Of a stretch of DNA of 64,000 nt, positions 62,878 to 64,000 are shown in pieces. The DNA is taken from the NCBI GenBank assembly GCA_964559435.1, contig CAZLHI010000002.1, positions 1,168 through 65,167 of the forward strand, in the 5' to 3' direction. The translations under genes were made by a program, and so were the position numbers. The number at the start of each line of letters is the position of its first letter. The stretch's first letter is position 1. Under the pieces are notes generated by a model. That model worked only from the letters and a program-made list of their open reading frames with translations, did no database searches and was not told the origin of the DNA. Origin of the DNA: an uncultured bacterium (GTDB lineage Bacteria > Armatimonadota > Hebobacteria > Hebobacterales > Hebobacteraceae).

Positions 62878-62906
62878 TTGACACGTCAGTTCAGAACTGG
62901 TATACA
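62878..62906 (+). promoter_or_regulatory. sigma70 promoter for the riboswitch leader
   Basis: TTGACA (62878-83), 17 nt, TATACA (62901-06), with a TGn extension. Confidence 0.65.
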
Positions 62907-62914
62907 GAAGGTCG

Positions 62915-63130
62915 TTTGGTGTCGAGTTGACACGTGAATAACATGCGCTGAGCAGATGCGTTTGGGAAGACGGTGGGAATCCGTCGCTGCCCCGCAACTG
63001 TAACCGCGGACGAACGCCGCAAGAGGCCACTGTTCCGGCGGTGCCGGGATGGGAAGGCGCGGCCAGTAGGATGATGCGGAAGCCAGGAGACCGGTCTGCT
63101 TGGGGAAGTTGGACGCCACTTCGCGGGAAG
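62915..63130 (+). promoter_or_regulatory. cobalamin (B12) riboswitch
   Basis: GGGAA (62964), CGGTG..AATCCG, CTGCCCCGCAACTGTAA (62987-63003), GCCACTG (63026), GGGAAGG (63051), B12 box AGCCAGGAGACC (63081-92), and a P13-like hairpin CTTC-GCGG-GAAG whose loop is complementary to CCGC. The 5' boundary is approximate. Confidence 0.93.
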
Positions 63131-63161
63131 GGGCTTGGCTGACGGGTTGATGGACATAGTC

Positions 63162-63197
63162 ACCCCGGCCACCTTTTCGGCGGCCGGGGTCTTCTTT
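63162..63197 (+). terminator. intrinsic terminator, likely the riboswitch expression platform
   Basis: ACCCCGGCC-N11-GGCCGGGGT followed by CTTCTTT. Confidence 0.75.
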
Positions 63198-63254
63198 GCG
63201 CCCCGGGAGCCGGCCTCCACCTCGCGAAACCACACTACACACTCGGAGGCGGCG

Positions 63255-64000
63255 ATGGGACGCACGCGAGGATTCACACTGATTGAGCTGCTGGTCGTGA
63301 TTGCGATCATCGGGATCCTGGCAGCGATGATCTTCCCGGTGTTCGCGCGGGCGAGGGAGAGCGCCCGTCAGGCGGTCTGCATGTCGAACATCAAGCAGCT
63401 TTCCCTGGCGATGCTCATGTACGCCGAGGACCACAGCGGGGGATATGTGCCCGCGGCGAGCCCCGACAACCTCATGCGCTGGCACGGCAGACGTCCGAGC
63501 TTAGACGAGCCGTTCCATCCAGAGGAAGGGCCGCTGTGGGCCTACTACCACCACGATCGGCTCAAGGCATGCCCGAGCTTCTCGCCCACCAGCCGGGAGT
63601 ACGGCTTCGAGCAAGGCACGGGCGGGTACGGCTACAACTCCCAGTATGTCGGCGGCTCTCCCGTCGGGTGGCCACAAATGTGCGTGCCAGCGAAAGAGTT
63701 CCTGATCCTGAAGCCGGCGGAGACGGTGATGCTCACAGACACGGCCTTCATGGACTGCGAGGGCAATCTGTTCGAGTACTCGTTCTGCGAAGCCCCCTAC
63801 TACCAGTTCTGGAACTCGCCCGCGGATCCCTCAACGCACTTCCGGCACAACGGCTTGTCGAACGTGGCATTCTGCGACGGCCACGCCCGCGCCATGCCGA
63901 TGGTCTACACCCACGCCAGTGGCTGGTGTCCGTCGCCGTTGATCGGCGGAGATGAAGTTGTCGCTTACACTGAGGACCTCCTCCGGGAGGCCCGGCTCGG
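63255..64000 (+). CDS. prepilin-type N-terminal cleavage/methylation, DUF1559 / H-X9-DG domain protein (3' end outside window)
   Basis: My translation: [48 protein letters not shown]...[24 protein letters not shown]. Absent from the ORF track because no stop falls inside the window. Confidence 0.93.

Follow-up and report, generated by a model that had tools for sequence, protein, structure and literature searches.

A cobalamin riboswitch paired with a pilin-like DUF1559 gene in Armatimonadota points to a pilin-based step in B12 uptake

Escherichia coli and Salmonella take up cobalamin through BtuB–TonB and BtuFCD and carry btuB-type leaders; more generally, B12 riboswitches normally repress genes for cobalamin uptake or synthesis, or for B12-independent isozymes. 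Surface B12-capture lipoproteins of Bacteroides presumably also include BtuH and BtuJ, the latter of which we take to be DUF4465. The nearest described accessory binder is BtuG, a Bacteroides lipoprotein that captures B12 at the surface, as set out in the part of PMC6143338 used here. According to PMC10632474, DUF1559/H-X9-DG proteins have no known function and form some of the largest paralog families in Planctomycetes and allied groups; in PMC10632474 and PMC2754498 DUF1559 is either left without a function or described as a family that putatively binds solutes. Here we consider a 64,000 nt stretch of DNA, referred to below as the window (contig CAZLHI010000002.1, positions 1,168 to 65,167, forward strand, assembly GCA_964559435.1), that ends in a cobalamin riboswitch followed by a gene for a pilin-like DUF1559 protein. 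It comes from an uncultured bacterium of the lineage Armatimonadota; Hebobacteria; Hebobacterales; Hebobacteraceae (G000 in our comparisons), the assembly of which is 3.6 Mb in size, 65% GC and 96% complete. From sequence comparison, the pilin-like protein is probably an envelope component of corrinoid acquisition, encoded at the head of a B12-repressed uptake-and-salvage operon, and it possibly stands in for BtuB. The pairing of riboswitch and gene suggests that B12 uptake may include a pilin-based step not described so far; a literature search of titles and abstracts, with supplementary files outside it, found no link of DUF1559, H-X9-DG, pilins or pseudopilins to cobalamin uptake.

The locus resembles that of E. 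coli and Salmonella in having a riboswitch with putative L5–L13 kissing-loop control on a predicted uptake operon, together with a BtuF-like protein and a BtuC-like permease, but the first regulated gene is of the prepilin type rather than a TonB-dependent barrel and btuC is unlinked. As in the BtuG-type loci of Bacteroides, an accessory non-transporter protein is encoded in a riboswitch-controlled B12 locus, although surface action is here our proposal, and one relative of the pilin-like gene (L052) follows a gene for a DUF4465 protein. Unlike in Bacteroides, the anchor would be a pilin helix and not a lipid, and the Bacteroides proteins work with BtuB, which is not riboswitch-linked here; nor was sequence or fold similarity found, with none of the known B12-capture families (BtuG, BtuH, BtuJ/DUF4465, transcobalamin-like) among the matches listed by the Pfam, PDB sequence, Foldseek and VIA searches. 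With the DNA-binding minor pilin ComP (PDB 5hz7) and with type IV pilins in general the protein shares a prepilin signal and, in its modelled fold, a resemblance at low Z, and PilD, PilB/PilT and secretins are encoded in the genome; as with ComP in DNA-uptake pili, we propose a pilin head that binds a cargo which is then brought in. The proposed cargo is, however, a vitamin, the head is roughly double that of ordinary pilins in size, and any filament and its retraction are here putative. Like the Planctomycetes paralogs in the sections of PMC10632474 and PMC2754498 that treat them, the protein has an N-terminal methylation motif, a DUF1559 start and a C-terminal H-X9-DG, but compared with the paralogs in those sections its lineage is short (261 amino acids), has head motifs of its own and is tied to B12 riboswitches.

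The association of riboswitch and pilin-like gene carries the argument. The cobalamin riboswitch model RF00174 matched in 38 of the 41 nearest genomes, and in all 20 relatives from which riboswitch loci were taken the first gene after the riboswitch was pilin-like (19 by Pfam, G005 by tblastn and translation); in G022 the controlled gene encodes a protein of 614 amino acids that is similar at its N-terminus only. The phylum sample comprised 150 genomes for RF00174 and 151 for a protein profile built from 100 sequences, G000 included, and was counted from the 150 top matches of each search. At least 84 of the 150 listed riboswitch matches had a same-strand ortholog downstream, 78 of them within 600 nt. 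Of the 112 genomes for which a riboswitch was listed, at least 78 had the pairing; among the matches listed, the best protein match adjoined a riboswitch in 76 of 114 genomes. The control set of 80 loci was taken from a pilin-helix pattern search, among the matches listed, and held mostly generic DUF1559 genes, chiefly from Verrucomicrobiota, Planctomycetota, Lentisphaerota and Armatimonadota; 77 loci were tested with Rfam, and L128–L130 by nhmmer only. A cobalamin-class riboswitch lay upstream in 7 of the 77 (L051, L052, L054, L055, L056, L059 and L106). These were six of the nine top-ranked loci and one full-length match, and were the closest relatives of the window protein among the matches listed, whereas generic DUF1559 loci had a riboswitch in 0 of 60. 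The preliminary description of this DNA had asked whether the subfamily is repeatedly preceded by B12 riboswitches or whether its orthologs generally lack them, and the counts in relatives and phylum, set against the generic loci, favour the former. Within the seven, L052 has the DUF4465 gene between switch and pilin-like gene, and L059 and L106 carry BtuF-like genes. L059 is compact (49-2342), with an adenosylcobalamin-II riboswitch (RF01689, 44.7 bits), a pilin-like DUF1559 gene, an open reading frame of 141 amino acids and a BtuF-like gene; its contig of 2.3 kb is labelled uncultured Clostridium sp., probably a binning error.

Further along these operons a BtuF-like gene was found in 16 of 21, the window's own included; three are cut by a contig end (G001, G008 and G009) and two are without it (G033 and G022). 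The cob genes are variable, nine relatives having the BtuF-like gene immediately after the pilin-like gene. As the cob genes come and go while the BtuF-like gene is kept, the conserved core appears to be switch, pilin-like gene and binding protein. The locus of G033 (L047:6300-10553) is built differently, with riboswitch, pilin-like gene, a 750-amino-acid protein without a Pfam match and a second pilin-like gene, and no BtuF-like gene. One explanation for the association would be that the pilin-like gene is a hitch-hiker, co-transcribed with the real targets (cobUTS and btuF), or that it encodes a B12-responsive surface protein outside uptake, and the presence of about 30 pilin-like paralogs in the genome would fit this. 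However, the riboswitch link is limited to this lineage, the paralogs being without it; it persists while the rest of the operon changes, reaches other phyla and is mutually exclusive with riboswitch-controlled TonB receptors. The possibility that the protein only precedes the true target gene, raised in the preliminary description, is also weakened by the direct pilin–BtuF succession in nine relatives and by at least two loci (G033 and L055) where the pilin-like gene is under a riboswitch and no BtuF-like gene is nearby. We therefore regard a hitch-hiking gene as quite unlikely.

The exclusion of TonB receptors was seen in the nearest genomes. The DISPLACEMENT pattern across these 41 was riboswitch–pilin in 25, riboswitch–TonB receptor in 11, both in 0 and neither in 5. 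A search for the Plug domain gave 39 matches in the same genomes, of which 11 lay just downstream of a riboswitch, one each in 11 genomes; one has two riboswitches, hence 12 pairs. In relatives, then, the switch controls a TonB receptor or a pilin-like gene, never both, which is a further difference from E. coli and Salmonella. Riboswitches of a sister family that have no pilin-like gene behind them control a PduO-type adenosyltransferase with a TonB-dependent receptor, a ThiC-like gene, cobU–cobT, or a BtuF-like gene; in the wider sample, families f6 and f7 hold both kinds of genome. We read the mutual exclusion as possible displacement of BtuB, for which it is suggestive rather than proof. 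Also in this comparison, B12 riboswitches directly precede ThiC-family radical S-adenosylmethionine genes at L008, L010, L012 and L023 (G025, G021, G024 and G029), and these may serve benzimidazole (lower-ligand) synthesis rather than thiamine.

The regulated unit of the window was resolved into the following features.
62878..62906, forward strand: sigma-70-like promoter, read from the sequence (TTGACA at 62878-62883, 17-nt spacer, TATACA at 62901-62906)
62937..63113, forward strand: cobalamin riboswitch aptamer RF00174, with L5 loop CCCCGC at 62990-62995
63116..63133, forward strand: P13/L13 hairpin CCACUUC-GCGG-GAAGGGG, from the consensus fold of 11 leaders
63163..63197, forward strand: intrinsic terminator, stem at 63163-63189 (11 positions with one mismatch), loop UUUUC, U-rich tail UCUUCUUUG
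63214..63249, forward strand: putative helix masking the ribosome-binding site (RBS), in which CCUCC at 63214-63218 pairs with the RBS GGAGG at 63245-63249
63255..64000, forward strand: pilin-like H-X9-DG/DUF1559 gene, stop 40 nt past the window, 261 amino acids, with a prepilin leader MGRTRG predicted to be cut before F

The preliminary description had read here a unit of promoter, B12 riboswitch, kissing-loop partner, terminator and RBS, and all of these could be placed in the leader between 62878 and 63249. An Infernal search with the Rfam cobalamin model gave a strong match (62937-63113, forward strand; 103.7 bits against a gathering score of 31.5, E 7.2e-25) over the full length of the aptamer (model positions 1-189 of 189), the sole match in an Rfam scan of the whole window and the one RF00174 match found in the source genome. 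The -35/-10 pair is at the same place in 10 of 10 aligned family leaders (G004 and G012, which were misaligned, were read by eye), and a consensus promoter scanner, the rule of which requires T at the last -10 position, returned 0 sites. A second TTGACA (62927-62932) was rejected as an extra promoter because it is without a -10 and its TGACA is the conserved 5' edge of the aptamer. A direct repeat, AGTTGACACGT, occurs at window positions 62876-62886 and 62925-62935; its first copy contains the -35 hexamer and its second supplies the TGACA at the aptamer edge, in 10 of 10 family leaders. GCGGG in loop L13 can pair with CCCGC of L5 (62991-62995) and is thus the candidate kissing-loop partner; 13 family leaders, and also G017 and G020, have an identical P13/L13 sequence. 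A terminator scanner placed one site here, where shuffled sequences gave 0.3 on average, and the GC-rich hairpin is kept in 10 of 11 aligned leaders (it is absent from G005), with compensatory changes in its stem (CG-to-UA, GC-to-AU). The RBS-masking helix joins alignment columns 147-152 with 189-193 and has two pairs with three compensatory sequences each, and the RBS ends five bases before the ATG at 63255. Minimum free energy folds of the whole leader were no stabler than those of shuffles (z -1.05 and -1.27), so that we relied on the comparative fold of 11 family leaders, which recovers the P13, terminator and RBS-masking helices.

We infer from these elements a B12 riboswitch of the ordinary OFF type that acts at two levels, termination and RBS masking. 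When corrinoid is plentiful the bound aptamer would capture the L13 hairpin through the L5–L13 kissing loop, whereupon the terminator would form, CCUCC would mask the RBS and the operon would be off; when corrinoid is scarce the operon would be made. B12 riboswitches do control B12-independent isozymes, and another possibility is that the protein carries out without B12 a function that otherwise depends on it, in the manner of metE and metH. This is extremely unlikely, as the protein has a predicted pilin fold and a prepilin signal and matched no enzyme family, and its constant partner is a B12-type binding protein.

The operon continues outside the window, as had been anticipated: the coding sequence of the pilin-like gene ends 40 nt beyond it and is followed by cobU, cobT, cobS and the BtuF-like gene, all on one strand and either overlapping or no more than 56 nt apart. 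Pfam scores were 186.6 bits for CobU, 452.8 for CobT, 182.4 for CobS and 116.9 for Peripla_BP_2, and the NCBIfam names agree. A lipoprotein-type signal, in which GCG is conserved, is present in the BtuF-like protein; the protein's best specific matches, a PGF-CTERM-type binding protein and BtuF, are both below cut-offs (85.8 bits against 234 for the BtuF equivalog NF002894). Of the transport components for which the preliminary description had asked that the downstream genes be read, a BtuF-like lipoprotein was found, with cobU, cobT and cobS; btuC is not in the operon. No TonB-dependent receptor was found in the operon. Adjoining it are convergent pabC-like (Aminotran_4) and pabB-like (chorismate-binding) genes (L001:5594-8151, reverse strand), a pair that has the same place in G002, G007, G017 and G020. 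In the 96%-complete genome CbiC and CobD/CbiB were not found, whereas a CobA-type adenosyltransferase, 10 matches to B12-binding domains and, on another contig, a lone BtuC-like permease were present. Taken together, these suggest an organism that uses corrinoids and obtains them by salvage, not by synthesis.

The pilin-like protein begins with a canonical prepilin signal: a short basic leader (MGRTR), G at -1, F at +1, E at +5 and a hydrophobic helix. Matches above cut-off were obtained with PF07963 (35.0 bits against 21.2), TIGR02532 (33.9 against 16.3), PF07596, or DUF1559 (36.6 against 23.3, covering profile positions 2-31 of 268 only) and, for the H-X9-DG motif (H198-X9-D208-G209, at 63846-63881), TIGR04294 (20.0 against 19). 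The earlier assignment as a type IV prepilin-type protein with H-X9-DG behind the riboswitch accordingly stands, and the three aromatic-rich segments quoted with it are all present and conserved across the subfamily. The most conserved residues of the head are R75-W76-H77-G78, G121 to N128, E174 to P181, H195 to H198 and D208 to H210, and its motifs RWHG, GGYGYN and EYSFxEAP are strongly conserved. In a PDB sequence search with the protein profile the N-terminal pilin helix was the only part matched; fused forms were not found among longer proteins of 458-2000 amino acids, which is weak evidence, and a stored homologue in the protein atlas (P0013) returned relatives from its own family only.

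An AlphaFold2 model from 100 sequences (mean predicted local distance difference test score, pLDDT, 92.4; predicted template modelling score 0.86) has a long alpha-1 helix (residues 9-59) that packs against a sheet, and its loops are large. In an exhaustive VIA search the best 18 of 18 structural matches were pilins or pseudopilins, all at low Z (up to 5.6): Thermus PilA4 gave Z 5.6 with a root-mean-square deviation of 3.2 over 123 aligned residues, ComP Z 4.5 with 3.7 over 97, and EpsG Z 4.2. With a head-only model (20 sequences, pLDDT 74.1) 13 of 15 VIA matches were pilins or pseudopilins, at Z up to 3.9. The full-length model resembles pilins only. A predicted complex of residues 46-324 of the BtuF-like protein with residues 30-261 of the pilin-like protein gave ipSAE values of 0.00 and 0.00; as it was run without controls, it counts neither way.

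These data also bear on the idea of a dedicated pseudopilin without B12 binding, which would help to export or position a binder, such as the BtuF-like lipoprotein, by way of a secretin; such a scheme would resemble the type II secretion of surface lipoproteins. The N-terminus is GspG-like, the BtuF-like protein has its lipoprotein-type signal with the conserved GCG, the pilin–BtuF pair belongs to the conserved core, and six secretins and a PilB–PilT–PilC–PilD cluster, which includes the one prepilin peptidase, are encoded in the genome. On the other hand, the GspG equivalog TIGR01710 matched the N-terminal 55 residues only (44.3 bits) and did not reach its cut-off of 88.85; for GspH and other pseudopilin equivalogs the N-terminal helix matches were likewise below cut-offs. 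Moreover, G033 and L055 have riboswitch–pilin loci without a BtuF-like gene, and a purely mechanical role would leave the conservation of RWHG, GGYGYN and EYSFxEAP in the head unexplained. We consider this export role unlikely.

Among the pilin-like genes of this genome are 15 DUF1559 paralogs of about 345-380 amino acids with near-identical N-terminal 55 residues (for example G000:C17:55578-55865, C11:23049-23324 and C9:93791-94051, with 12 more). Their heads vary around NPYLRW, CPSAK, WGGxVTDS and ARHLGGVNxGFLDGHA, and one (L135:4630-5724) adjoins pilD–pilC–pilT–pilB. As these heads are quite unlike that of the window protein, the latter belongs to a separate lineage. Elsewhere in the window, two adjacent genes on the reverse strand encode NHL-type repeat proteins with recurring DGSCWVAD, of 593 amino acids (56888-58669) and 815 amino acids (58923-61370); the larger also matches three S-layer-homology domains (its neighbour was outside that scan), and both are probably cell-surface proteins.

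We propose that the pilin-like protein acts in corrinoid acquisition as follows. The product would be cut by the genome's prepilin peptidase and would then either stay in the inner membrane as an anchored protein or become part of a type IV pilus or pseudopilus, acting upstream of the BtuF-like protein and the unlinked BtuC-type permease. As the most likely mechanism, its enlarged aromatic- and His-rich head would bind corrinoid and hand it inward, and CobA, CobU, CobT and CobS would complete salvaged cobinamide. Several points weigh against this proposal. Pilin processing, the uptake role and ligand binding are inferred. Foldseek returned no match at E <= 0.001 for the full and the head-only models, and solved B12 binders were not among the structural matches of either. 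The relatives' genomes are non-independent observations by kinship, and the phylum counts are lower bounds, with 54 riboswitch and 1575 protein matches outside the top matches counted. Riboswitch-controlled pilin-like genes without a BtuF-like neighbour exist (G033, G022 and L055), and btuC lies outside the operon (btuD was not searched for). Complementarity is the whole of the evidence for the kissing loop: L5 and L13 are invariant in the family, so that covariation could not test it, and a clear compensatory L5–L13 pattern was not found in the divergent leaders of G033 and G034. Lastly, the genome encodes two TonB-dependent receptors and an ExbB–ExbD–TonB set, which may serve a conventional outer-membrane route; against the BtuB model TIGR01779 the receptors scored 67.7 and 24.7 bits (cut-off 599.7) and neither reaches BtuB. 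The interpretation first put forward for this DNA, of a corrinoid-capture pilin or pseudopilin induced by B12 starvation, is thus as a whole partly supported.

A more far-reaching form of this proposal, which we advance only tentatively and think doubtful as it stands, is that a retractile type IV pilus or pseudopilus carries a B12-repressed minor pilin which binds corrinoids, pulls them through a secretin and passes them to the BtuF-like lipoprotein, thereby replacing BtuB; this would apply to much of Armatimonadota and to some Planctomycetota and Verrucomicrobiota. If true, this would be a case of vitamin import by a pilus and would give the DUF1559/H-X9-DG superfamily its first ligand. A DUF1559 lineage that is locked to the B12 regulon in any case provides a concrete ligand question, namely whether the head binds corrinoids. 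If the displacement pattern holds, there would be an outer-membrane route for a 1.3-kDa vitamin without a TonB-dependent barrel, and genomes of this kind would otherwise be scored in annotation as lacking B12 uptake. Such a TonB-free route, if true, would bear on how B12 moves through sediments and soils, which are common habitats of these uncultured phyla.

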